Counted from the first letter of the stretch, positions 43,934 through 58,241 are shown. The stretch: 64,000 nt of DNA from Bdellovibrionota bacterium (GCA_050950765.1 JBMNIF010000002.1:1024001-1088000), one strand, 5' to 3'. Program-made: numbers and translations. Notes: a model not told the origin generated them from the sequence alone.

Positions 43934-46690
43934 ATGGCGAAAATCAGGATATATGAACTTGCTAGAGAGCTAGGCGTCGACAATAAAGCCGTTATCCTTA
44001 AAGCTCAAGAACTTGGGATGCCGGGTAAATTATCGCATTCCAATTCTCTTGAAGAGAGTGAAGCTGAACAGTTACGTCGAGCATTTATACGAGCGGCGGT
44101 TAGTCCTGCTCCGCAAAGCACCACTAGAGTTGTCAAAAAACAGGTTGATGTTTCAACCGGAGAGACGAGAACTATTATCGAGAGTAGGAAAGGGAACGTT
44201 GTTAGACGTAGGCGGCAAAGTGAACCGGAAGTGCAGGTTAAGCAAGAAGTAGAGCAACGTGAAGAAGAGGAGATAAAAGAGTCAACCGTCGAAGTCGCAC
44301 TTGAATCTCGTGAAGATACGACAGAAAAGGATCAGGTCTTATCAAGTGGTGTGGTACCTACTGAAGTCGTGGTGGGGGAAGAAGTTTCTGAATCTATTGC
44401 GCAAGATGAAGAAGGTTCATCTGAAGCTCTTCTTGAAGAAGAGGTGGCTTCTGCAGCAGAGAAAGTTATTTCAGAATCTGAAGTGGTAGAAGATCTTCAG
44501 GAAGAGGACTCCTCTGCAGAAGATGAGGCTGCGGAAGAAGAACAAGAGGTAAGTAAAGTTGAAGATGTTATAAAGAGAGGGGTCAAGAAAGTAATTGTAG
44601 GGCCGAAAATTTTAGGAAAGATAGAGCTACCGCAGAAAAAGAAAAAAGGTGAAAAGAGTGAAAGGGGTGAGCGTACCTTTGAAAAAGGAGGTCCCGTCGC
44701 TTCTCAATACGATGAAAGTATTGAGGATGATGAGGATGAAGAGGGCGGTCGTCGTCAAGGTGGAGGTAAAAAACGTTCTCGCAAGCGAGAGTTCACACGT
44801 GGGCAGTTAGTCGATTACGATGGCAGACCAGGGAGACGACGGGGGCCTAAAGATGCTAAAGGCAAAGGCGAGCAAGTTGAAAAAGAGGAAGCCGTTGTGG
44901 AGACGCAACCCCAAAGAGCTTCGAAACGGGTAGTCAAGATGGCTACTGATGTGATTACGGTTGGTGAACTTGCCAGACAGATGAGTTTAAAAGTTGCAGA
45001 GGTTATTTCAAAGTTAATGCAGCTCGGTGTAATGGCAACGATAAATCAAGCGGTGGACTCTGATACTGCTGCGATAGTTGCTGATGAGTTCGGCTTTACC
45101 ATTGAGTTTACCGGTTTTGATGAAGAAGAGATCTTGATGATTGAGCCGGATACTGCTGATGTCCGTATGGAGTTAAGATCTCCTGTTGTGACAGTGATGG
45201 GGCACGTTGATCACGGTAAAACTTCATTACTTGATGCAATTAGAAAAACTTCCGTAGCGGCGCGTGAACACGGAGGAATTACACAACACGTTGGAGCGTA
45301 CAAGGTAAAGCTACCAAGTAATCGTAGCGTTGTGTTTATTGATACACCTGGCCACGCTGCTTTCACTCAGATGCGTGCACGTGGTGCTGAGGTAACTGAT
45401 ATTGTGATTATCGTTGTTGCGGCAGATGACGGTGTGATGCCTCAAACAATAGAGGCTATTAACCATGCTAAAGCTGCAAATGTTAGTATCTGTGTTGCAA
45501 TTAACAAGATGGATAAGCCTGAAGCGAATCCTGATAAAGTTAAACAACAGTTAGCAGAGCGAGGGCTGCAACCGGAAGATTGGGGTGGTGATGTGATGAT
45601 GTTCCCCGTTTCTGCAGCAACTCGTGAGGGAATACCAGAGTTGTTAGAAGGCCTTTTATTGCTGGCTGAAATTAAAGAATTAAAGGCTAATGTAACGGGG
45701 CGTGCTAAGGGAACTATTATTGAATCAAGGCAGGAGCGTGGACGTGGTACCGTCGTAACATTACTGGTTCAGTCCGGATGCTTAAAGATCGGTGATATCT
45801 ATGTTTGTGGAGCTGAATACGGAAGAGTCAGGGCTCTTTACGATGATAGACAAAATAGAATTGAGGAAGCAGGCCCGTCAGATCCTGTTGAGCTCTCCGG
45901 TCTATACGGCGTACCTATGGCTGGTGATGATTTCATCGTGGTTGAAAATGAGCAGCAAGCAAAACAGGTAGCGACCAATCGTAAACAACGTAAGATGGCA
46001 AAAGATCAACTCTCCTTAGCTGGTGGTCCGATCAGCTTAGAGGAGTTTGCACGACGAGCCGGTCAGGAACAGGCTTTAGAGTTAAATATTATCATTAAAA
46101 CGGATGTGCACGGAACGTTGGAAGCGATTACGGAGTCCGTAGAGAAGCTTTCAACTCAGAAGGTCAAGGTGCGAGTCTTACACGGTGGTGTTGGTGCCAT
46201 CACTGAATCTGATGTGCAGTTGGCGTTAGCATCAAAAGCCATTATCGTTGGCTTCGGGGTGCGCGCTGAGCCTAGGACGATTAACGAAGCTGAAAGTGTT
46301 GGTGTAGAATTACGCTTTTATAGGGTAATTTACGAGTTATTGGATGATGTAAAGTTGGCGATGGCGGGGTTACTTGATCCGATTAAGAAAGAGGTTTCTT
46401 TAGCCAGAGCTGAAGTGCGAGATACCTTTGTGGTGCCTAAAACAGGTACTGTCGCAGGGTGTTATGTTTTGAACGGAACTGTTAAACGTGGTGCGCGCTT
46501 ACGATTGTTGCGGGATAATAATGTTATTCATGAAGGAAAGATGCTTTCATTGCGTCGTTTTAAGGATGATGTAAAGGAAGTGGCTGCTGGATATGAATGC
46601 GGTATCTCATTTGTCGGTTATAATGATATTAAAGTTTCCGACATTATCGAAGTTTATGAAATTGAAGAAGTTGCAGCAACGTTGGAGTAA
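43934..46690 (+). CDS. infB: translation initiation factor IF-2
   Basis: [23 protein letters not shown]. Confidence 0.98.
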   Translation: MAKIRIYELARELGVDNKAVILKAQELGMPGKLSHSNSLEESEAEQLRRAFIRAAVSPAPQSTTRVVKKQVDVSTGETRTIIESRKGNVVRRRRQSEPEVQVKQEVEQREEEEIKESTVEVALESREDTTEKDQVLSSGVVPTEVVVGEEVSESIAQDEEGSSEALLEEEVASAAEKVISESEVVEDLQEEDSSAEDEAAEEEQEVSKVEDVIKRGVKKVIVGPKILGKIELPQKKKKGEKSERGERTFEKGGPVASQYDESIEDDEDEEGGRRQGGGKKRSRKREFTRGQLVDYDGRPGRRRGPKDAKGKGEQVEKEEAVVETQPQRASKRVVKMATDVITVGELARQMSLKVAEVISKLMQLGVMATINQAVDSDTAAIVADEFGFTIEFTGFDEEEILMIEPDTADVRMELRSPVVTVMGHVDHGKTSLLDAIRKTSVAAREHGGITQHVGAYKVKLPSNRSVVFIDTPGHAAFTQMRARGAEVTDIVIIVVAADDGVMPQTIEAINHAKAANVSICVAINKMDKPEANPDKVKQQLAERGLQPEDWGGDVMMFPVSAATREGIPELLEGLLLLAEIKELKANVTGRAKGTIIESRQERGRGTVVTLLVQSGCLKIGDIYVCGAEYGRVRALYDDRQNRIEEAGPSDPVELSGLYGVPMAGDDFIVVENEQQAKQVATNRKQRKMAKDQLSLAGGPISLEEFARRAGQEQALELNIIIKTDVHGTLEAITESVEKLSTQKVKVRVLHGGVGAITESDVQLALASKAIIVGFGVRAEPRTINEAESVGVELRFYRVIYELLDDVKLAMAGLLDPIKKEVSLARAEVRDTFVVPKTGTVAGCYVLNGTVKRGARLRLLRDNNVIHEGKMLSLRRFKDDVKEVAAGYECGISFVGYNDIKVSDIIEVYEIEEVAATLE

Positions 46691-46696
46691 TTTCTT

Positions 46697-47104
46697 GTGG
46701 CAGAAAGACGGCGTGTTTTTAAGGTTTCTGAGAGGATTCGTGAAATAGTAGCGGGAGTGTTGCCACGCGCTGCGGATCCGAGATTTTCTATGGTCACTAT
46801 AACAGGGGTGGTGGTTAGTCCTGATTTAAGAGAGGCTAAGCTTTATTGGTCTGCTCCAGATGCAAAAGATAATCTGCTTGAGATGGAAAAAGCTTTTCGT
46901 AATGCGACAGGTTTTTTTAGACGTGCCGTTGGAGATAACTTAGATCTGCGCTTTGTTCCGAATTTACGTTTTATTTATGATGATACGTTGGATGTATATG
47001 CGCAGGTGCAGGAATTGATTGCAAAGATTCCACCTGAAGATCTTGCTCCGAAGGATGCCGTTACACACTCTGAAGAACAGGATGCAGAAGATGGCGATGA
47101 CTGA
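46697..47104 (+). CDS. rbfA: ribosome-binding factor A
   Basis: DPR, VSPDL, LRFVPNLRF. Confidence 0.95.
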   Translation: MAERRRVFKVSERIREIVAGVLPRAADPRFSMVTITGVVVSPDLREAKLYWSAPDAKDNLLEMEKAFRNATGFFRRAVGDNLDLRFVPNLRFIYDDTLDVYAQVQELIAKIPPEDLAPKDAVTHSEEQDAEDGDD

Positions 47105-48146
47105 AGATCGTTCAAAAGGTGTTGAGCAAAACAGAGAGCACCACTCTGACGACTCTTTTAAAGAGAGTAAGAGAGAGGTTTGGGCTAAAATAATTGAACA
47201 GATCAGATCCGCCGAAAATATCTTGGTTGTTGCACATCAAAGTCCAGATCCGGATGCTTTCGGTTCTAGTTGTGGCATGACTTTAGCTTTAAAGTATTTT
47301 GGGAAAAATGCACTCTGCCTTAATCAAGATGGGGCTGCACCACACCTGCAATACATCCCTGACGCTTTTGCTGTTACGGATACCGTCCCTGCAGGAGAGT
47401 GGGATCTGATAATCGTTTGCGATTGTGGTGAGAAGGAAAGGATTGGATCTGAACTCCTTAATCAACTTCCGCAAGGTGTTCCGATCGTGAACCTCGATCA
47501 CCATTATTCAAATGATAATTTTGGAGATTTAAATCTCGTTCTTCCAAATGCTAGCTCCGCTTCTGAAATCGTTTTTGAAGTGGTTAGTGATCTCCTCGGA
47601 ACGTTAACTCCAGAGATTGCAGAGTGTTTATTAACTGGAATAATTGCAGACACAGGCGGGTTTCGTTATTCATCAGCTACGGCATATACCTTTATTGTAG
47701 CTGAAAAATTAATTAAAGCCGGTGCTAATCTTGAACGTGTAAATCGTAATCTATTTAGTAATCGCTCTCTAGCAGCAGTACGTTTAGCGGCGGCGGCGAT
47801 CTCTGCAATGAAGATTCACGCTGCGGGAAAGGTCGTAGAGATCTTAGTAACGGAAGAGATGATGCAGCGTTTCTCGGCGCAACCGACAGATTGCGAAGGT
47901 TTGGTTGATGCAGGACGTGATATTGAGGGGGTTTGTGTTTCAATTTTAATTCGTAAAGATGGAGATCTTTGGAAGGTTAGTTTAAGGTCTAAATATTCAG
48001 AGTGTAATGTTTCAGAGGTGGCAGCCACTTTTAATGGTGGTGGGCATGTGCAAGCAGCTGCCTGTCGTTGGAGCGGAGAGTTAGAAGATCTTAGAAGTTC
48101 ATTATTGGCTAAAGTAATTCAAGTTGTTAATGATTCAGGAAAATGA
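47097..48146 (+). CDS. nrnA: DHH/DHHA1 phosphoesterase (NrnA-like)
   Basis: HQSPDPDA, DHH, DTGGF, SLRS, GGGH. Confidence 0.88.
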   Translation: MTEDRSKGVEQNREHHSDDSFKESKREVWAKIIEQIRSAENILVVAHQSPDPDAFGSSCGMTLALKYFGKNALCLNQDGAAPHLQYIPDAFAVTDTVPAGEWDLIIVCDCGEKERIGSELLNQLPQGVPIVNLDHHYSNDNFGDLNLVLPNASSASEIVFEVVSDLLGTLTPEIAECLLTGIIADTGGFRYSSATAYTFIVAEKLIKAGANLERVNRNLFSNRSLAAVRLAAAAISAMKIHAAGKVVEILVTEEMMQRFSAQPTDCEGLVDAGRDIEGVCVSILIRKDGDLWKVSLRSKYSECNVSEVAATFNGGGHVQAAACRWSGELEDLRSSLLAKVIQVVNDSGK

Positions 48147-49014
48147 ACACCGATCAGGGATCGTTTTATTAGATAAGCCTGCCGGAATTACTTCGGCGAA
48201 GGCGATCGCTATCTTAAAACGGAGATTACGGTGTAAAAAGATAGGGCATGCTGGAACCTTAGATCCTATGGCAACAGGGTTGCTTGTTTGCTTAATCAAT
48301 GGTGCTACTAAATTAGCGGCGTTGGCGGTAGCAGGTGATAAAGTTTATTCAGGAACCTTTCTATTTGGTGTTGTTACCGATACGGATGACATTGAAGGAA
48401 AAGTCATCTCGCACTCTCTTGATTTGCCGACATTTGATCAGGTGCAAGAGCACCTTAAGAGCTTTCTTGGAACAATAGAGCAGGTGCCTCCGCAAGTCAG
48501 TGCAATAAAGGTCGATGGAGAGCCTCTTTATAAACGTGTCAGGCGGGGCGAGGAGGTAGTTATAACGCCACGTTCTGTAACGATTCACTCCTTTGAGATC
48601 TTTCCGACGGAGGTGCCTGAAAAGTTTGATTTTAGAATACACTGCTCTAAGGGGACGTATATCAGATCTATTGCAAGAGATTTAGGCGTTGCTGTGGGGT
48701 GTGGAGCTTGCTTGGCGAAGCTACGTCGTGAGAAGTCTTATCCTTTTGACACTATCAACGGAAAAAAAATTGAAGAAATTGATGCTTCTGACATCTTGGA
48801 TTGGTGGACTTTGCTCCCTGATGTTGGGATGATAGAGCTGGAAGATGGTGCTGCGCAACGTCTTAAAAATGGGGATCAATCTCTACTAACGAAGATATCC
48901 GAGTCTTTCCCTGATGTTAACAGTGTGATTTATGGGGATAGTCGTTACCGTTACGGGGTCTTGGTTAGGGAAACGCTTGACGGTGCTTGGAAGATAGCCG
49001 TTAATGTGGTGTAG
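48130..49014 (+). CDS. truB: tRNA pseudouridine(55) synthase
   Basis: GHAGTLDPMATG, CSKGTYIRS. Confidence 0.97.
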   Translation: MIQENEHRSGIVLLDKPAGITSAKAIAILKRRLRCKKIGHAGTLDPMATGLLVCLINGATKLAALAVAGDKVYSGTFLFGVVTDTDDIEGKVISHSLDLPTFDQVQEHLKSFLGTIEQVPPQVSAIKVDGEPLYKRVRRGEEVVITPRSVTIHSFEIFPTEVPEKFDFRIHCSKGTYIRSIARDLGVAVGCGACLAKLRREKSYPFDTINGKKIEEIDASDILDWWTLLPDVGMIELEDGAAQRLKNGDQSLLTKISESFPDVNSVIYGDSRYRYGVLVRETLDGAWKIAVNVV

Positions 49015-49054
49015 TGAGATGTTATATGTTTTTTAATCTTACAGGAGAAGATAG

Positions 49055-50362
49055 ATGCCATCTTTAGTATTAGTCGGTGCCCAATGGGGTGACGAAGGCA
49101 AGGGGAAACTCGTTGATTATTTAGCGCCGAAGGCGAATTGGGTTGTCCGTTTTCAAGGCGGAAATAATGCGGGTCACACCGTTATTGTCGGAGAAAAAAC
49201 ATATAAATTAAGCCTTATACCATCAGGAATTTTACATACCGAAACGTGTTGTGCATTAGGAGCGGGGGTCGTGATTGATCCGGAAGTGCTATTAAGTGAG
49301 ATGGCAAAGCTTAATGAAGATGGTGTTAGTACTTCGCCAGAGCGTTTGATTGTAGATAGAGATGCTCATCTGATCCTTGAATATCATAAATTGATTGATG
49401 TCGCACGTGAGCACTCTATGGGTGCTGCTAAGATCGGCACAACGGGGCGAGGTATTGGGCCAGCCTACGAAGATAGAGCAGCTAGAATGGGTGTGCGGAT
49501 GGCTGATCTCTTTGATCTGGGGGCGTTAAAGAAGAGGTTACGAGAGATTACAGATCAGAAGAATCTTTATTTATCAGGTGTTTTGGGGAGTGCAACGGTG
49601 GCTGATTTTGATCAAATTTGGCAGGTCGTAGAGCGAGCTGCTGAAAAGTTGTGTCCTCATGTGCGTAACGTCAGTTTGTTGATCGATCAAGCGCTGCAAA
49701 ACGGTAAGAAGGTGCTTTTTGAAGGTGCACAAGGAACGTTGCTGGATCAGATGCACGGAACAGTTCCGTTTGTAACTTCTTCAAATACAGTGGCGGGTGC
49801 TGCTGCTACCGGTACGGGGATCGGACCTAATAAGATAGATTACGTTTTAGGTATTGTAAAAGCTTATACGACCCGTGTGGGGAGTGGGCCATTCCCAACT
49901 GAATTGAATGATAAGGATGGCGATCACCTTTGCGAGAAAGGGCGGGAGTTCGGCACCGTCACGGGTAGAAAAAGACGGTGCGGTTGGTTTGATGGTGTGG
50001 CGATGCGACGGGCTGTCAGATTAAACGGTATAAATTCTTTTGCCATCACTAAATTGGATGTTCTTTCAGGTTTAGATACTTTAAAAATTTGCACTAAATA
50101 TAAACTTGATGGGGAGTATATTGATGATGTGCCACCTCTCGCTAGTGAGAGTGCTAGGGTGCAGCCTGAGTATATTGAATTAGCTGGCTGGAAAGAAGAT
50201 ATCTCAACGGTAAAGTCGTGGCAGGAGTTGCCAGAGGCTGCTAAAAGATATCTTTCGACTATTTCGGACGTTACAGGTTGTCAGATCTCTGTTTTGAGTA
50301 TAGGACCAGATCGAGATTCAACGATCTTTTCAGATTGTTCACAGTTTATCCGTAACTTTTAA
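49055..50362 (+). CDS. purA: adenylosuccinate synthase
   Basis: QWGDEGKGK, GGNNAGHT, TVTGRKRRCGW. Confidence 0.98.
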   Translation: MPSLVLVGAQWGDEGKGKLVDYLAPKANWVVRFQGGNNAGHTVIVGEKTYKLSLIPSGILHTETCCALGAGVVIDPEVLLSEMAKLNEDGVSTSPERLIVDRDAHLILEYHKLIDVAREHSMGAAKIGTTGRGIGPAYEDRAARMGVRMADLFDLGALKKRLREITDQKNLYLSGVLGSATVADFDQIWQVVERAAEKLCPHVRNVSLLIDQALQNGKKVLFEGAQGTLLDQMHGTVPFVTSSNTVAGAAATGTGIGPNKIDYVLGIVKAYTTRVGSGPFPTELNDKDGDHLCEKGREFGTVTGRKRRCGWFDGVAMRRAVRLNGINSFAITKLDVLSGLDTLKICTKYKLDGEYIDDVPPLASESARVQPEYIELAGWKEDISTVKSWQELPEAAKRYLSTISDVTGCQISVLSIGPDRDSTIFSDCSQFIRNF

Positions 50363-50384
50363 AGGTGATGAGGAGTTGAAAGTC

Positions 50385-51716
50385 ATGCAGAATGAGGTGC
50401 CGCAAAAAATTCTTATAATTGATGATGAAGAGAGTATCTGCCGTACATTAACTGCTATCTTTAAGGATGAAGGCTTTGCGCCGATCTCTGCACAAGATGG
50501 AGAAACGGGGTTGCAACTTATTCGAGAATCATCACCAGCTCTAGTGTTGCTGGATATCTGGATGCCGAGTATGGATGGGATTGAGGTCTTACAAAAGATT
50601 AAAGAGATAGATCACGATATCCCTGTTGTGATGATTAGTGGGCACGCTACTATTTCGACTGCGTTGCAGGCGACTCGGATGGGTGCTGCGGATTTTATTG
50701 AAAAGCCTCTGGAATTGGAAGCTACTATGCGCGTTGTTAGGCGTGTGCTCGGGATAACAGATCTTGAAAACGAAGTTGAAGCAGGGCAGGTCTCAGAAGA
50801 AAAAGCGACAGCGGAGTGGGTTATCAATGGTGGGAGCGAAGGGGTAGCCATTAACAGAGTTGTTTTTGAAGATCAGAAATGGCGCGGGCGTAAAGTAACA
50901 CAAAAGACCTTAAAACACAGCGCAATCTTATACGGGCACGGTGTGCATAGTGGAAAGAAATCAGGTTTGCTACTTGAGCCGTTAGGTGCAAATTGTGGGA
51001 TCCATTTTACAGCTGTTGCTTCAACACAAGCTGTACCAGCACATCTGAATTACGTTCATTCAACAGGGTATGCCACAACGATTAGAGAGGGTGAAAATAG
51101 CGTTGCTACTGTGGAGCATTTAATGTCTGCTTTACATGCCTATGGCATAACTAATCTACTGATAAAGTGTAACGGTGAAGTGCCTGTTATGGATGGTTCG
51201 GCGCTAGAGTTTTGTAACCTCTTTGATCAAGTTGGTCTTGAGGAACAGGTAGGAGATTTTTATGAAATCGAAGTAAAGCACGCCGTTCGGATCGGAAATG
51301 AGAAGGAGTATATCTTACTTGAGCCTGCCGATGAATTTTCAATTGAATATACCTTGCAATATCCAGAACCGATTGGGCGACAGTATATGCAGTTTACTTT
51401 AGAGAGCCCTGCGACATTTGTAGATTTTGTGGCACCAGCTAGAACTTTCGGATTTGTAAGGGATATCGGTGCACTGCAGAAGCAAGGTTTAGCGCAAGGC
51501 GGACGCTTTGATAATTTTGTGCTTGTTGGAGAAGATGGGATTATTAACGCAGATTTGCGTTATCCTGATGAGCCCGTGCGGCATAAAATTCTAGATATGA
51601 TTGGAGACCTTTACCTTTTAGGACGACCGATCCGTGGAAAGATTACTGCTTGTATGACGGGTCATTCTGATAATATTGCGTTATTGAGGGCGTTGCAAAA
51701 GGAGATGAATAAATAA
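50385..51716 (+). CDS. lpxC: receiver (REC) domain fused to UDP-3-O-acyl-GlcNAc deacetylase LpxC
   Basis: N-terminal IIDDE, LLDIWMP and FIEKP; C-terminal VEHLMSAL, PVMDGSA, ARTFGF, HKILDMIGDL and GH. Confidence 0.93.
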   Translation: MQNEVPQKILIIDDEESICRTLTAIFKDEGFAPISAQDGETGLQLIRESSPALVLLDIWMPSMDGIEVLQKIKEIDHDIPVVMISGHATISTALQATRMGAADFIEKPLELEATMRVVRRVLGITDLENEVEAGQVSEEKATAEWVINGGSEGVAINRVVFEDQKWRGRKVTQKTLKHSAILYGHGVHSGKKSGLLLEPLGANCGIHFTAVASTQAVPAHLNYVHSTGYATTIREGENSVATVEHLMSALHAYGITNLLIKCNGEVPVMDGSALEFCNLFDQVGLEEQVGDFYEIEVKHAVRIGNEKEYILLEPADEFSIEYTLQYPEPIGRQYMQFTLESPATFVDFVAPARTFGFVRDIGALQKQGLAQGGRFDNFVLVGEDGIINADLRYPDEPVRHKILDMIGDLYLLGRPIRGKITACMTGHSDNIALLRALQKEMNK

Positions 51717-51815
51717 AGGTAGATTATTTAGCCTCCAATCTGAGATAATCTTTTATTTTTAAGTTTTTTCTCGGTACTATACTGTATTGTTGCGGCTTTG
51801 ATTTGAGGGGTATTT

Positions 51816-52814
51816 ATGTTTTGTATTTCAGGACGTGATCTAGCGGTAGATTTGGGAACCTCCAATACACTGGTGTATATAAAAGGTAAGGGGGTCGTGC
51901 TTAATGAGCCTAGTGTTGTAGCTTTAAAGCAGCGTGGTAAGCGTCGAACTCCGATCGCGTTTGGAGCTGAAGCTAAAAATATCTTGGGGAAAGCTCCAGA
52001 AGGAGTGGTGGTGGTGCGCCCTGTTAGAGCAGGCGTTATCTCTGATTTTGAATCAGCTGGGATAATGCTAAATCAATTTTTAAGAACAGCTTTAAAGGCG
52101 CGTAGCTTTATAAAACCGCAAGTTGTAGTTACGGTTCCAAATACGATCTCAGAAGTTGAGAAGAGAGCTATTCGAGATTCTATTGAAGGAAGTGCTTCGA
52201 TTAAATTAATAGATCAAGCTATGGCTGCTGCTATCGGATCTGATCTGCCTGTGAAAGAACCTTCTGCTAGTATGATCGTTGATATCGGGGGTGGTACAAC
52301 GGACGTTGCTGTAATCAGTATGGGACAACTTGTTTGTTGTCAATCGGCGAGACAGGGAGGGGAGGCGGTTGATGATGCTATTATAAATTACCTTAGACGC
52401 CATCATCAGTTTATTATTGGAGAGACGACGGCCGAAAATATCAAAAAAACGTTAGGCTCTGCGCAGGCAGAGTACGATGATGAAGAGATGGAGGTGCGGG
52501 GGCGCAGTGTGACTAAAGGCACCCCTGCTACTACGGTCGTAACAAGTGGAGAGATAAGAGCTGCTATTGCAGAGCCTCTTAGTGGGATAATTTCAACGAT
52601 ACGTCACACCTTAGAGGTGACTCCGCCTGAGTTGGCAGGGGATATTATGTCAATCGGGTTAGTGCTGGTTGGAGGTGGTGCGCTCTTGCGTGGTTTAGAT
52701 CGCTTGATCTCTGATGAATTGCAAGTCGCTGTAAGAATTGCCGAAGATCCGCTAGGGGCGATCGTGGCAGGGGCTGGGAAGTGTTTGGAAAAAAATATCT
52801 CTGATGAGATTTAA
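51816..52814 (+). CDS. mreB: MreB/Mbl family actin-like protein (divergent)
   Basis: DLGTSNT, EPSVVA, VDIGGGTTD, GGGALL. Confidence 0.9.
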   Translation: MFCISGRDLAVDLGTSNTLVYIKGKGVVLNEPSVVALKQRGKRRTPIAFGAEAKNILGKAPEGVVVVRPVRAGVISDFESAGIMLNQFLRTALKARSFIKPQVVVTVPNTISEVEKRAIRDSIEGSASIKLIDQAMAAAIGSDLPVKEPSASMIVDIGGGTTDVAVISMGQLVCCQSARQGGEAVDDAIINYLRRHHQFIIGETTAENIKKTLGSAQAEYDDEEMEVRGRSVTKGTPATTVVTSGEIRAAIAEPLSGIISTIRHTLEVTPPELAGDIMSIGLVLVGGGALLRGLDRLISDELQVAVRIAEDPLGAIVAGAGKCLEKNISDEI

Positions 52815-53438
52815 GGGTCAAATAGTGGCTCTGTAAGCCTTAAAACCGTTAGGTAAAACTCTAAAATCGGTTACAACTTTTTAAAAAGTGCGCTTCTTCT
52901 CTTATGGCGCAGATCGTTGCCACGCATCTACCGAGTATGCTCGGTAGATGTTAATTGAAAGGTTTGCTGTTGTAAAAAGTTTGTAAAATTTAAAAAATCT
53001 TATATAATCCCCGTGTAAAATTCTTCTTGACAGGAAGAACTTAATCGAGGGAGCGTGGCACTGATTAAGGGTCATAAAAACGAGAAAAATACAATTTTTT
53101 TTATTTATTTTATCTTTTTTATCTGATTTCATTGACATAATCGCTCCATAGATGATAACAAAGCGCGTCGTTTCAAGACTGCAAGCTTTTAGTTCGCTGT
53201 TTTGAGGAGATGCAAGGCTTCCACCTCGGGGAAGTAACCATCTCATGACGTTTTGCTGCCAGATTCAACCTCTACGGTTGCCAATCTTAACCGAGGATAA
53301 GCAGCGAAATAGTATAAACGTGTTGAGATAGAGAAGTTGTCTTTTGTTCCCTTCTCTCTCTGATCTGATGCGTGTTGCGTCGTGCGATGTGTGTCGGATT
53401 TTGTAAGTTCGAATAATTGGATCGATGGAGCGGCTGGT

Positions 53439-53810
53439 ATGCCAACTATTAATCAGTTAGTACGTAATCGTAGGCAGGATAAGAGATACAAGAGTAAAAG
53501 TCCTGCCCTTAAAGAGTGTCCACAAAGACGTGGAGTTTGCACCCGTGTTTACACGCAAACTCCGAAGAAGCCTAACTCAGCTTTGCGTAAGGTAGCAAAG
53601 GTTAGACTTACGACAGGGGTGGAGGTTGCTTCTTATATCCCTGGAATTGGGCATAATCTGCAGGAGCACTCAGTTGTGTTAATTCGTGGTGGTCGTGTTA
53701 GAGACCTCCCAGGTGTTAGGTACCATATTATCCGTGGTAAGCTTGAAGCGCAGGGAGTACAGGGACGTCAGCAGAGTCGTTCTAAGTACGGTGCTAAGAG
53801 ACCTAAGTAA
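53439..53810 (+). CDS. rpsL: 30S ribosomal protein S12
   Basis: [17 protein letters not shown]. Confidence 0.99.
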
Positions 53811-53852
53811 CGTTTGTGTGTTGATTTTTAATCGTCCCGTTTGGGGGGTGTT

Positions 53853-54323
53853 ATGACAAGAAAGAAAAGAGATTTTTCCCGTCCGATTCTTCCGGATCCT
53901 AAGTATGGCGACACTGTTTTAGCTAAGGCTATGAATGTTATTATGCGTGATGGCAAGAAAAGTGTTGCTGAGAAAGCGCTCTATAATGCGTTAGAGATTA
54001 TGCAGAGTAAGTTAAAAGCGGATCCGTTGGAGAGTTTTAGAAAGGCGCTCTCTAATATTGAGCCTGTGGTTGAGGTGCGCTCTCGTCGTGTTGGTGGTGC
54101 TACTTATCAGGTGCCGACGGAGGTTAGCGCAAAACGTGGGCAGGCTTTAGCTTTGAGGTGGCTTGTTAAATATGCCAATGCTCGTAGTGAGCGTACCCTC
54201 GCAGAGAGACTTTCTGGAGAGTTAATGGACGCTTTGCAAGGACGTGGTGCTTGTGTGAAGAAGAGGGAGGATACCCATAGAATGGCAGAAGCCAACAAGG
54301 CGTTTGCACATTTCCGTTGGTAA
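53853..54323 (+). CDS. rpsG: 30S ribosomal protein S7
   Basis: [23 protein letters not shown]. Confidence 0.99.
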
Positions 54324-54470
54324 TTTTTTTACTCAGCTCGATTTCCTTTTTTTGTTGATAACGTTGCAAAGTGTGGAAATGTGATTGCTGTGATGTTTTG
54401 AATGGCAGATCTTAATGGTGGAGATCTGTAAAATGACACTGAATTATATCTTTCAGTGGGTGAGGTAAAA

Positions 54471-56570
54471 GTGGCGAAAGTAAACCTTGAAAGGGTACGA
54501 AATATCGGAATTATGGCGCATATTGATGCGGGTAAGACAACTACGACCGAGCGTATCCTTTTTTATACCGGTGTTAATTACAAAGTTGGCGAAACCCATG
54601 AGGGTGCGGCTACTATGGATTTCATGGAGTTGGAGCAGGAGAGGGGGATTACTATCGCTTCTGCTGCTACTACGTGTGAGTGGAGAGGCTCTTATGCTGA
54701 CCGTCCTGCGCATAAGATTAATATTATTGATACACCAGGTCACGTTGATTTTACGATTGAAGTTGAAAGAAGCCTTAGAGTCCTAGATGGTGCTGTGGCT
54801 GTCTTTGATGCTGTTTCTGGAGTTGAGCCCCAGTCTGAAACGGTCTGGAGGCAAGCTAATAAGTTTAATGTTCCTAGGATCTGTTTTATCAATAAGATGG
54901 ATCGTGTCGGGGCTGATTTTGATAAGTGTTATGAGTCGATCTGTTCAAGGCTACATGCAGAGGCTCTACCAATTCAAATTCCGATCGGTGCTGAAGCCAA
55001 CTTCCAAGGGGTTATCGATCTAGTTCAGATGAAGGCCATCGTTTTTGTTGAAGGGACGATGGGATCGAAGTTTAATGTGGAAGATATTCCAGCTGATTTA
55101 AAAGAGAAGGCTGAAAAGGCTAGAGAGCATATGCTGGAGGGCTTGGCTGATACTGATGAAGGTATCATGGAGAAGTATCTGCAAGGTGATGAACTTTCCA
55201 GTGCCGAGATAATTGCTGCTATTCGTAAAGCCACTGTGGAGATGAAGATCTTCCCGATGCTTTGTGGAACTGCTTTTAAGAACAAGGGTGTGCAACCTTT
55301 GTTGGATGCTATTATAGATTTTCTTCCATCCCCGTTAGATGTTCCAGCGGTGAAGGGTTATCCGATGGATAGCAAGGAGGGTGAAGAGCCTTCTATTGAG
55401 AGAAAAGCCAGTGATAGTGAGCCGTTTTCTGCCTTAGCGTTTAAGATAGTTACAGATCCGTACGTCGGTGTTCTGACCTTCTTCCGTGTTTATTCTGGAA
55501 AAATTGCAGCTGGTGCCACTGTTTTGAACTCTACTAGAGATAGTAAAGAGCGTTTCGGTCGTATCCTTAGGATACATGCGGATAAACGTGAAGAGATTAA
55601 AGAGCTCTCTACCGGTGATATCGGTGCGGCAGTGGGCTTAAAGGAAGTTGTGACAGGTGATACCTTGTGTGATCCTGCGAATCCTGTTGTCTTTGAAAGT
55701 ATATTTGCTCCGGAGCCTGTTATTAGTGTGGCGATGGAAGCTAAAACGAAATCTGACGCAGATAAACTTACAACTGCCCTGTTAAAGTTAACTAAGGAAG
55801 ATCCGTCATTAAAATTTAAGTCCGATGAAGAGACAGGGCAACTCGTGGTTTCTGGCATGGGTGAGCTGCATCTCGATATTATTAGACAACGTCTACTACG
55901 TGAGTTTGGTGTTGATTGTACCGTAGGCAAGCCGCAGGTAGCTTACAGAGAAACTGTTAAAACTAAGATTGAACATCAACTTAAATACGCCAAACAATCT
56001 GGTGGTCGTGGACAATATGCTGAGGTTTATTTACGTGTTGAGCCGCTGGGACGTGGTGGTGGATTCGAGTTTGTTGATGAGATTAAAGGTGGGGTGGTTC
56101 CTAAAGAGTATATCGGACCTACGAAGGCCGGTGTTGAGGACGCTTTGAAGAGCGGTGCTCTTGCAGGATTCCCCGTAATTGATGTAAAAGTGACGCTTTA
56201 TTTCGGTAGTTTTCATGAAGTTGACTCTAGCGAGATGGCGTTTAGGATTTGTGGTTCTATGTGCTTCAAGGAAGCGTGTCGTAAGGCTGGTATGGAGCTA
56301 CTTGAACCGATTATGTCGTTGGAAGTTGTTTCTCCTGATGAATTCGTTAGTAACGTTGTCGGAGATCTCAATAGAAGGCGTGCAAGAATTTTAGGCATGT
56401 CAGCACGTGGAGGTGCACAGGCTATCAAGGCAAGTGTTCCACTGTCTGAGATGTTCGGTTATGCCACGGACTTGCGCTCGAGCTCTCAAGGTCGAGCAAT
56501 GTTTACCATGGAGTATGACCATTACGATGTGGTGCCTGCGCAGATTGCTGAAGGGATTACTACTAAGTAG
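54471..56570 (+). CDS. fusA: elongation factor G
   Basis: [29 protein letters not shown] start after GAGG. Confidence 0.99.
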
Positions 56571-56663
56571 TAACCTTCCATTCCTGTGTTGGCTATCAGT
56601 TGAAAGGAGTTAATTTTACTATCTCGGATTTTTTTGTCCGAGTTACACAAAACGGAGCGTATT

Positions 56664-57860
56664 ATGGGTAAGCAAAAGTTTGAGCGTACAAAAGCTCATG
56701 TAAACGTCGGTACTATTGGCCACGTCGATCATGGTAAAACCACATTGACGGCAGCTATTCTTCAAGTGCAAGCAAAGAAAGGGCTTGCTACCGTGAAGAG
56801 CTATGCAGATATTGCAAAAGGCGGAACAGTACGTGACGATTCTAAAACAGTAACAATTCACAGTGCACACGTTGAGTATGAGACTCAAGCTCGTCACTAT
56901 GCACACGTTGACTGCCCAGGTCATGCTGACTACGTCAAAAACATGATTACCGGTGCAGCACAGATGGATGGTGCTATTCTTGTTGTTAGTGCAGCTGATG
57001 GTCCTATGCCACAGACTCGTGAGCACATCCTTCTCGCCAGACAGGTTAATGTACCTAAGATCGTAGTCTTCCTTAATAAGGTTGATATCGTTGACGATCC
57101 TGAATTACTTGATCTCGTTGAAATGGAAGTCATTGAGCTCCTTAATGAGTATGACTATCCAGGTGATGAGACTCCTATTATTCGTGGTAGTGCCTTGAAG
57201 GCATTGCAAGGAGAGGATAGTGAGGTTGGCGTTCAATCTATCGGAAAATTGATGGATGCTATTGATACCTATATTCCAGAGCCGACTCGCGATATCGATA
57301 AACCTTTCCTTTGCCCGATTGAAGATGTGTTCTCAATCGAAGGTCGTGGTACCGTTGCAACAGGTCGTATCGAGCGCGGTATTGTGAAGGTTGGTGATGA
57401 GATCGAGATCGTTGGTATTAAAGATACCACCAAGACGGTTGTAACGGGTGTAGAGATGTTTAATAAGACCCTTGATCAAGGTCAAGCTGGTGATAACGTT
57501 GGTCTTCTTCTCCGTGGTGTTAAGAGACAAGAGGTCGAGCGTGGTCAAGTTATTGCTAAGAAGGGTTCTATTATGCCTCATAAGAAATTCAAAGGTGAGG
57601 CTTACGTCTTGAAGAAAGAAGAGGGTGGTCGTCACAAACCTTTCTTCCCAGGATACCGTCCGCAGTTCTATTTCAGAACAACTGACGTAACCGGTTCTAT
57701 TAAGCTTCCAGAGGGTGTGGAGATGGCTATGCCAGGTGATCACGTTAATTTGGAAGTTGAACTTCATCAGCCGATCGCTCTTGAGCAAGGTGTGAGGTTC
57801 GCTGTTCGTGAAGGTGGCAAAACAGTAGGTTCTGGTATTGTTACCGAGATAATTGAATAG
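56664..57860 (+). CDS. tuf: elongation factor Tu
   Basis: [32 protein letters not shown]. Confidence 0.99.
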
Positions 57861-57869
57861 TTCGAGTAA

Positions 57870-57901
57870 ATGGGGGCGTGTTCTTGGGGATACGCCCCCA
57901 T
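57870..57901 (+). other. strong hairpin between tuf and rpsJ (no U-tract)
   Basis: ATGGGGGCGTGT/ATACGCCCCCAT inverted repeat. Confidence 0.6.
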
Positions 57902-57923
57902 ATTGAGATAAGGAAAAATATCG

Positions 57924-58241
57924 ATGATAGGCGGCGGGCAGTTAATTCGTATTCGGTTAAGGGGTTATGATCATAAGCTGCTGGACTCTGCGGTGGCAGA
58001 GATAATTTTGGCAGTGCGTCGTACTGGTGGTAAGGTGGCAGGACCTATTCCGCTACCCACTAGAACCGAAAGGTATACAGTAAATCGTTCAACCTTTGTT
58101 GATAAAAAATCGCGCGAGCAGTTTGAGATGAGGACGCATAAACGTCTTTTGGATATTCTCGAGCCAACGCAGCAAACCATCGATGAACTTGGTAAGCTTG
58201 AGCTTTCCACCGGCGTTGATGTTGAGATTAAGCTGGAATAG
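57924..58241 (+). CDS. rpsJ: 30S ribosomal protein S10
   Basis: GPIPLPT, SREQFE. Confidence 0.98.

Follow-up and report, generated by a model that had tools for sequence, protein, structure and literature searches.

In a 64,000-nucleotide stretch of a Bdellovibrionota bacterium genome (GCA_050950765.1, JBMNIF010000002.1:1024001-1088000; henceforth the window) we identified a gene that joins, in a single open reading frame (ORF), a two-component receiver domain (REC) and a complete LpxC, the deacetylase that commits the cell to lipid A synthesis. The window covers positions 1024001-1088000 of contig C2 in a genome of 2.64 Mb (5 contigs, 94% complete). The REC-LpxC fusion is real, conserved and single-copy. 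It is best explained as a stripped-down form of a widespread fusion between the response regulator NtrX and LpxC, one that lacks the AAA+ and DNA-binding parts, and its sequence suggests that a sensor kinase of the NtrY type, whose gene lies elsewhere in the genome, probably switches lipid A synthesis directly.

The gene lies at 50385..51716 on the plus strand and, according to the ORF list and the Pfam and NCBIfam matches, encodes 443 amino acids (aa) plus a stop. The open frame begins with either a TTG (50376) or an ATG (50385) and ends at 51716; the ATG, giving the 443-aa product, is the likelier start because a GAGGAG sequence (50370-50375) is found 9 nt 5' of it. The receiver domain (residues 9-116, 50409..50732, plus strand) matches PF00072 (Response_reg) with an E-value of 1.9e-28 and 99.3 bits, against a cut-off of 30.2, and carries D13, D14, the phospho-acceptor D57 within the motif LLDIWMP, S85, F104 and the pair K107-P108. 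It is followed by a linker of 56 residues (117-172, 50733..50900, plus strand) and by the LpxC deacetylase domain (residues 173-438, 50901..51698, plus strand), which covers model positions 1-267 of 268 in PF03331 (E 1.9e-83, 280.5 bits) and passes the cut-off of the NCBIfam equivalog TIGR00325 (lpxC; 243.6 bits vs 187.25). Within this domain we found E244-H245, T354, F355, H400-K401-x-x-D404, D408 and H427, and the protein stops 5 residues past its end. A preliminary description made from the sequence alone had reported a REC, a linker and a complete LpxC with such motifs in one ORF, which the Pfam and NCBIfam matches and the alignment to a solved LpxC bear out.

That alignment, to the LpxC of Pseudomonas aeruginosa, was obtained in a search of solved structures (E about 3e-50), and the motifs TVEHL, ARTFGF, HKILDxIGD and GH are all matched in it. 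We take TVEHL to contain the catalytic Glu and the first zinc His, ARTFGF the Thr/Phe pair, HKILDxIGD the His-Lys-Asp-Asp cluster and GH the second catalytic His. An AlphaFold2 model built from a 63-sequence alignment reached a mean predicted local distance difference test score (pLDDT) of 89.6 and a predicted template modelling score of 0.76. Its LpxC part, compared with LpxC structures of the PDB using Foldseek, gave template modelling (TM) scores of 0.82-0.95 on target length with root-mean-square deviations of 1.5-2.5 for most chains; no solved chain spanning both domains was found by Foldseek, the TM score on query length being 0.60 at most. The full-length match above curated cut-offs, the zinc-ligand and catalytic residues and the fold all place the C-terminal part among LpxC enzymes as a predicted deacetylase. 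Similarly, the N-terminal part combines a PF00072 match above the cut-off with the acidic pocket of a receiver (DD, acceptor D, S/T and K) and has a predicted phospho-acceptor. In the linker, residues 132-150 are the only stretch of the model with pLDDT below 50 and are predicted to be disordered, and residues 151-170 (pLDDT 81-94) are predicted to be ordered; the final 20 or so residues of the linker (INRVVFEDQKWRGRKV) are semi-conserved among near relatives. A complex prediction between REC (1-128) and the linker plus LpxC (151-443), based on slices of the alignment and run with controls absent, scored 0.00 where the mark is 0.32, and it bears neither way on whether the two parts dock.

The preliminary description had named an assembly chimera as a way in which the fusion could prove false. 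We excluded it by a search of 96 genomes, all at least 85% complete and from the same phylum-level group. In 87 of them the same fusion is present end to end, as one uninterrupted match over both domains (from about residues 2-9 to 434-443). In four others (G004, G014, G028 and G073) the domains are joined but cut by a contig end or parted by a divergent linker. In the last five, the domains are on separate contigs in G034 and G058, only LpxC was matched in G049 and G041 (in the latter at a contig start), and G033 gave no match. Among named public assemblies, both domains were matched in 23 of 25 loci, whose record titles name Bdellovibrionota or Bdellovibrionales (11), Candidatus Binatia (5), 'delta proteobacterium' (4), Proteobacteria or Pseudomonadota (2) and Chloroflexota (1). 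Likewise, all of the best 120 matches in a collection of 5.8 billion proteins carry both Pfam domains. An artefact of any kind, whether from chimeric assembly, from a frameshift that fuses two genes or from a wrong ORF call, has nothing in its favour and next to no probability given this uninterrupted frame in independent assemblies and the GC content, which has no break along the gene.

Database labels of the fused proteins read plainly LpxC or NtrX, and the family is labelled in the records as belonging to Bdellovibrionota, Binatia, Nitrospinota and Entotheonellia, all of them poorly studied phyla. As for whether this is the only lpxC, a check proposed with the preliminary description along with the distribution of the architecture, the genome gave no PF03331 match other than the fusion. 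LpxB was also found there, so the lipid A pathway does exist in this organism.

If the receiver were still in use, its phosphorylation site should be kept. We examined 63 short-form relatives, 31-72% identical to the window protein, and found that D13 is kept in 60 (E in the other 3), D14 in 62, the acceptor D57 in 62 (N in one), and S85 and K107 in all 63, with F or Y at the aromatic switch position 104 in 61. The catalytic positions of LpxC are kept in 63/63, except T354 (62/63). Mean identity to the window protein is 55% for REC, 61% for LpxC and 19% for the linker, so that conservation of the receiver comes close to that of the essential LpxC. Such conservation, despite the loss of all other parts of NtrX, is an argument that REC still signals and that its target would now be LpxC.

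The descent of this receiver from NtrX is indicated by several lines of evidence. Among NCBIfam families the REC part scores highest with NtrX (NF051870, 123 bits, model positions 3-135), followed by AtoC with 102.5 bits, and its best two matches among solved receivers are 4d6x and 5m7n, which we take to be Brucella NtrX. Only the REC part matches, and the protein does not reach the whole-protein cut-off for NtrX (600 bits); neither the sigma-54-type AAA+ domain nor HTH_8 was detected in it by Pfam, and in its own genome and phylum-level group the gene is not placed directly downstream of ntrY as is characteristic of ntrX. Judged from these sequence features, REC-LpxC is a derivative of NtrX and not an NtrX.

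Longer relatives recovered from a search of 1.84 billion cluster representatives help to trace this descent. Forty-one of them were scanned with Pfam: 19 have the REC-LpxC architecture, 6 are REC-Sigma54-type AAA+-AAA_lid-LpxC proteins of 650-736 aa, and one is REC-HTH_8-LpxC. The rest comprise 6 AAA+-LpxC proteins without REC, which by their lengths are probably (N-terminal) fragments, 5 LpxC-FabA fusions, one LpxC alone, 2 multi-REC proteins and one 417-aa cluster representative (P0262) in which REC is followed by a partial LpxC (model positions 41-119) and MoCF_biosynth. Chimerism, a frameshift or decay of a fusion may account for this last protein. A looser scan of 15 long forms placed HTH_8, with a score over its cut-off, immediately in front of LpxC in 5, so the long forms are whole NtrX-type regulators with a C-terminal LpxC. 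Of 17 long forms, 12 keep Walker A and none has GAFTGA. Absence of GAFTGA is a trait of NtrX. The Walker B pattern we used, which may be too strict if the motif is not truly lost, had no match in the AAA+ domains of the 17 and one match inside an LpxC part. By their source names the long and middle forms come from Nitrospinota, 'Deltaproteobacteria' and metagenome-assembled genomes (MAGs) of Candidatus Entotheonellia, and one of them is annotated as NtrX by JGI.

We also built a tree of 120 LpxC domains, i.e. the window protein plus those of 150 representatives whose aligned LpxC part had 250 residues or more, using a quick IQ-TREE search; the tree is unrooted and its rows were picked by similarity to the query. 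Every fused form falls on one side of a branch with a Shimodaira-Hasegawa-like approximate likelihood ratio support of 100. The 49 rows of the fused side are 22 REC-LpxC, 15 REC-AAA+-LpxC, 2 middle forms, 5 AAA+-LpxC fragments and 5 labelled 'LpxC only', two of which (P0128 and P0151) begin within the linker or the helix-turn-helix (HTH) and are fragments. The 71 rows of the other side are unfused LpxC or LpxC-FabZ. Short and long forms are interleaved within the fused clade, a pattern that fits a single fusion event, after which the AAA+ and HTH parts were lost repeatedly.

Which kinase might address the receiver? According to the preliminary description no kinase gene is adjacent. This holds for the window, inside which no HisKA or HATPase_c match was found (the nearest is about 87 kb from the REC-LpxC gene), but it is incomplete, as the fusion lies directly behind an NtrY-type kinase in two other phyla. 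All four scanned loci of the Binatia type (L024, L027, L031 and L033) have a kinase gene directly upstream on the same strand, at 24-58 nt, coding for 739-748 aa with NtrY_N, HAMP, PAS, HisKA and HATPase_c domains and preceded by yebC-ruvC-ruvA-ruvB; L025 and L028 have unscanned ORFs of 743 and 746 aa at the same position. Both Nitrospinota-type loci read DUF4390, NtrY (776-780 aa), REC-AAA+-LpxC, purN, lolA and rseP. On the other flank of the Binatia-type genes, a DUF2203 gene directly follows REC-LpxC on the same strand in two loci (L027:7306-7743 and L033:7306-7743), and L028 has an unscanned 146-aa ORF in its place. None of the three scanned loci labelled Bdellovibrionota has ntrY adjacent: L018 and L022 show DHH-truB-purA upstream, as in the window, and L010 a divergent HDOD gene and a PAS kinase.

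The genome of the window does have an NtrY orthologue of 739 aa, located on contig C3 (223395-225611, minus strand). It shares 37% identity with the Binatia NtrY (E 7.5e-139, versus 3.7e-24 for the next best kinase) and has the same context as there, yebC-ruvA-ruvB-DUF4390-ntrY. Behind it come 1.6 kb without any ORF of at least 90 aa and then an aminotransferase gene, with no response regulator adjacent. No NtrX above the curated cut-off was found in this genome, the best candidate reaching 357.8 bits versus 600. As this NtrY kinase and the NtrX-derived receiver both stand without a partner gene beside them, NtrY is the best available pairing for REC-LpxC. NtrY orthologues were found in 95 of the 96 genomes of the group.

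The 1.6 kb behind ntrY (L038:5768-7392, about 221767-223391 on contig C3 of G000) occupy the position that the NtrX::LpxC gene has in other phyla. They are rich in direct repeats of seven families, e.g. 127 nt present three times, 114 nt three times and 41 nt seven times, and the families with listed sequences share the core GGGTGGCACCA. The stretch has no Rfam match at E <= 0.01. A decayed copy of ntrX or lpxC was sought here by tblastn, the queries being the window protein and four relatives of the long or middle type, and nothing below an E-value of 0.09 was obtained. In a comparison of helix alpha-1 and the beta5-alpha5 region, two motifs were common to the fused receivers and absent from the other receivers of the genome, E..[IV]R..[LV]..[IV]L.D and F[IL]EKP; orthology alone would produce them and we have not counted them for the NtrY pairing.

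Direct two-component control of LpxC, which the preliminary description had put forward, is thus supported by sequence evidence: the phospho-acceptor set of REC is intact and conserved, the fusion is the sole LpxC and an NtrY orthologue is present. We consider it fairly probable that the whole account is right, namely that an NtrX receiver is fused to LpxC, that NtrY sets the state of D57 and that LpxC output changes post-translationally as a result. NtrY is the likeliest candidate for both kinase and phosphatase, with a periplasmic DUF4390 (PlrP-like) partner that would probably modulate it in setting the phosphorylation of D57. The change in REC may then alter LpxC output either by intramolecular docking akin to that of CheB, with the unphosphorylated receiver occluding the LpxC active site, or by REC-driven dimerisation. 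An envelope signal would thereby be coupled to the flux into lipid A. That NtrY, its DUF4390 partner and REC::LpxC form a dedicated three-part phosphorelay is a more tentative proposal, to which we give somewhat less than even chances.

For the direction of the effect, the known behaviour of NtrYX offers an analogy. In Rhodobacter sphaeroides, deletion of NtrYX was reported to give 8.8-fold more lpxC mRNA and more lipopolysaccharide (LPS) (PMC7240162), and according to the available text of a 2025 review, transcription of lpxC is inhibited by NtrYX both in this species and in Caulobacter (PMC12444477). Because of this repression we lean weakly towards phosphorylation lowering LpxC output here too, which is a guess as to direction.

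Several observations weigh against the account just given. In no genome of the phylum-level group does ntrY adjoin the fusion (distances on the same contig are 35, 86, 95 and 280 kb), for which reason the pairing has to be drawn from orthology with the other phyla, and the genome has about 13 other HisKA kinases above the cut-off. In one Bdellovibrionota-labelled MAG (L010:3497-5691) the region immediately upstream of REC-LpxC encodes, in divergent orientation, a 427-aa PAS-HisKA-HATPase_c kinase and an HDOD/HD protein, and this PAS kinase is a possible alternative partner in that lineage. Helix alpha-1 of the window receiver is only 14-50% identical to that of nine other fused forms, six of them beside ntrY, so partner specificity could have drifted. 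The receiver can also be lost, as P0169, P0187 and P0201 of the fused clade begin at LpxC and look truly unfused. Finally, some long forms retain the HTH, and the ancestral fusion may therefore stem from gene adjacency alone, without allostery.

The main competitor to control of catalysis through NtrY is control of stability. Here the receiver would govern the amount of LpxC and not its catalysis, phosphorylation exposing the protein to FtsH, Lon or ClpXP or hiding it from them, in replacement of the LapB/FtsH route of E. coli. Proteolysis of LpxC is an established theme in E. coli, and Lon has been proposed for alphaproteobacteria in the available text of the same review (PMC12444477). The fusion also lacks the C-terminal tail of the E. 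coli LpxC, and the genome yielded neither a LapB above the curated cut-off (NF008757, best 41.9 bits vs 363) nor a match to the LapB zinc-ribbon PF18073. However, PF18073 is unspecific, with control matches in 10 of 14 genomes including Gram-positives, the lack of LapB would be just as compatible with any other mode of control, and no degron or adaptor is indicated by the sequence. We regard control of stability as unlikely, at perhaps one chance among several.

Still less probable, in our estimate, is that the receiver no longer signals and persists as a structural or dimerisation module or as the leftover of an operon fusion, with LpxC constitutive. Loss of the stop codon between adjacent ntrX and lpxC genes could have produced such a protein, as the HTH_8 directly before LpxC in the long forms suggests, and both the missing kinase gene beside the fusion in this lineage and the three members of the fused clade without REC would be compatible with it. 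An idle receiver would nevertheless be expected to lose its acidic pocket, and the near-invariance of D57, S85, K107 and the aromatic at position 104 described above speaks against this, as does the conservation of REC next to a drifting linker. Moreover, REC alone outlived the loss of the AAA+ and HTH parts, and the fusion is near-universal in the phylum-level group. A reversed or shared flow of information, in which the LpxC part reports its occupancy by substrate or product to REC, and REC, by draining or competing for phosphate, adjusts how NtrY signals to other regulators, seems very improbable. Single-domain and enzyme-linked receivers are known as phosphate sinks in other systems, and the genome encodes several NtrC-family regulators and about 25 REC-bearing ORFs; however, with no regulator adjacent to NtrY and no NtrX above the cut-off a second target of NtrY is not evident.

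As a response regulator with an enzymatic output, REC-LpxC would by its architecture belong with CheB, PleD, WspR and RpfG, with which it shares an N-terminal REC, a flexible linker and a C-terminal enzyme. In CheB the unphosphorylated receiver blocks the active site. Unlike in these proteins, the output here is a zinc deacetylase of an essential biosynthetic pathway and not a signalling enzyme. The closest functional precedents are transcriptional. With NtrY/NtrX of R. sphaeroides, Caulobacter and Brucella the likeness lies in the REC itself, which is most similar to that of NtrX, in the long relatives with REC-AAA+ lacking GAFTGA and then HTH_8, and in the place of the fusion behind ntrY in other phyla, which is the NtrX slot. 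There, however, NtrX is a DNA-binding regulator and lpxC is repressed indirectly among dozens of genes, whereas the window protein has neither AAA+ nor HTH, has the enzyme itself as its output and is encoded away from ntrY. A second precedent is DVU2931-DVU2934 of Desulfovibrio vulgaris, where the two-component regulator DVU2934 is reported to have lpxC as its single mapped target; in S. fumaroxidans lpxC adjoins the orthologous regulator operon (both in the available text of PMC3333781). Adjacency of this kind is one from which a fusion could arise, although control there is transcriptional and exerted by separate proteins.

Control of LpxC by other proteins is also known, through LapB(YciM)/FtsH proteolysis in E. 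coli and through activation by MurA in P. aeruginosa. In REC-LpxC, by contrast, the enzyme carries its own control element in the form of a phospho-receiver, and both a LapB above the cut-off and the C-terminal tail are absent. A parallel to the proposed sensor is the PlrP-PlrS-PlrR system of Bordetella, where, as far as the available text of the study goes, the DUF4390 protein PlrP is the third component of an NtrYX-family system, genetic evidence indicates that it restrains the phosphatase activity of the kinase, and DUF4390 genes co-localise with ntrY homologues (PMC13001219). DUF4390 is likewise directly upstream of ntrY in the genome studied here and in the Nitrospinota-type loci. PlrR differs in being a transcription factor, and LpxC and lipid A are not mentioned in the available text of that study.

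We found no published description of a REC-LpxC fusion in full-text literature searches, whose coverage leaves out most subscription journals, and the words 'response regulator', 'receiver', 'fusion' and 'fused' do not occur in the available text of the 2025 review of lipid A regulation (PMC12444477). Domain-architecture databases surely list the combination of REC and LpxC. LpxC is an antibiotic target, and a natural fusion of an NtrX receiver to it offers a Rosetta stone that connects two questions, how LpxC is regulated outside Enterobacteria and what NtrYX systems sense and control. From it follows the prediction of a new mode of LpxC regulation, in which the enzyme is phosphorylated on a receiver of its own, with a named candidate for the kinase. 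If NtrY, its DUF4390 partner and the fusion do form a three-part phosphorelay, homeostasis of LPS and the envelope would be among the old, central tasks of the NtrYX family, and the circuit of alphaproteobacteria, where NtrX represses lpxC at the level of transcription, would have been derived from it. The product is a soluble protein of 443 aa, which makes ordinary biochemistry feasible.

In the window, purA (adenylosuccinate synthetase; 49055..50362, plus strand, Pfam E 1.8e-176) ends 22 nt upstream of REC-LpxC, and the two are probably co-transcribed; no promoter- or terminator-like site was found in the gap between them. The order DHH-truB-purA-REC-LpxC is repeated in L018 and L022. Downstream, mreB (51816..52814, plus strand, Pfam MreB_Mbl E 4.7e-118) follows after 99 nt, a neighbour not kept in the relatives, as L018 and L022 have other genes there. 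Between 47019 and 54323 all ORFs of at least 142 aa are on the plus strand: DHH, truB, purA, REC-lpxC, mreB and two ORFs downstream of mreB that by sequence resemble ribosomal protein genes. GC skew is positive in each 500-nt interval from 44000 to 58000, with values of 0.06-0.41.

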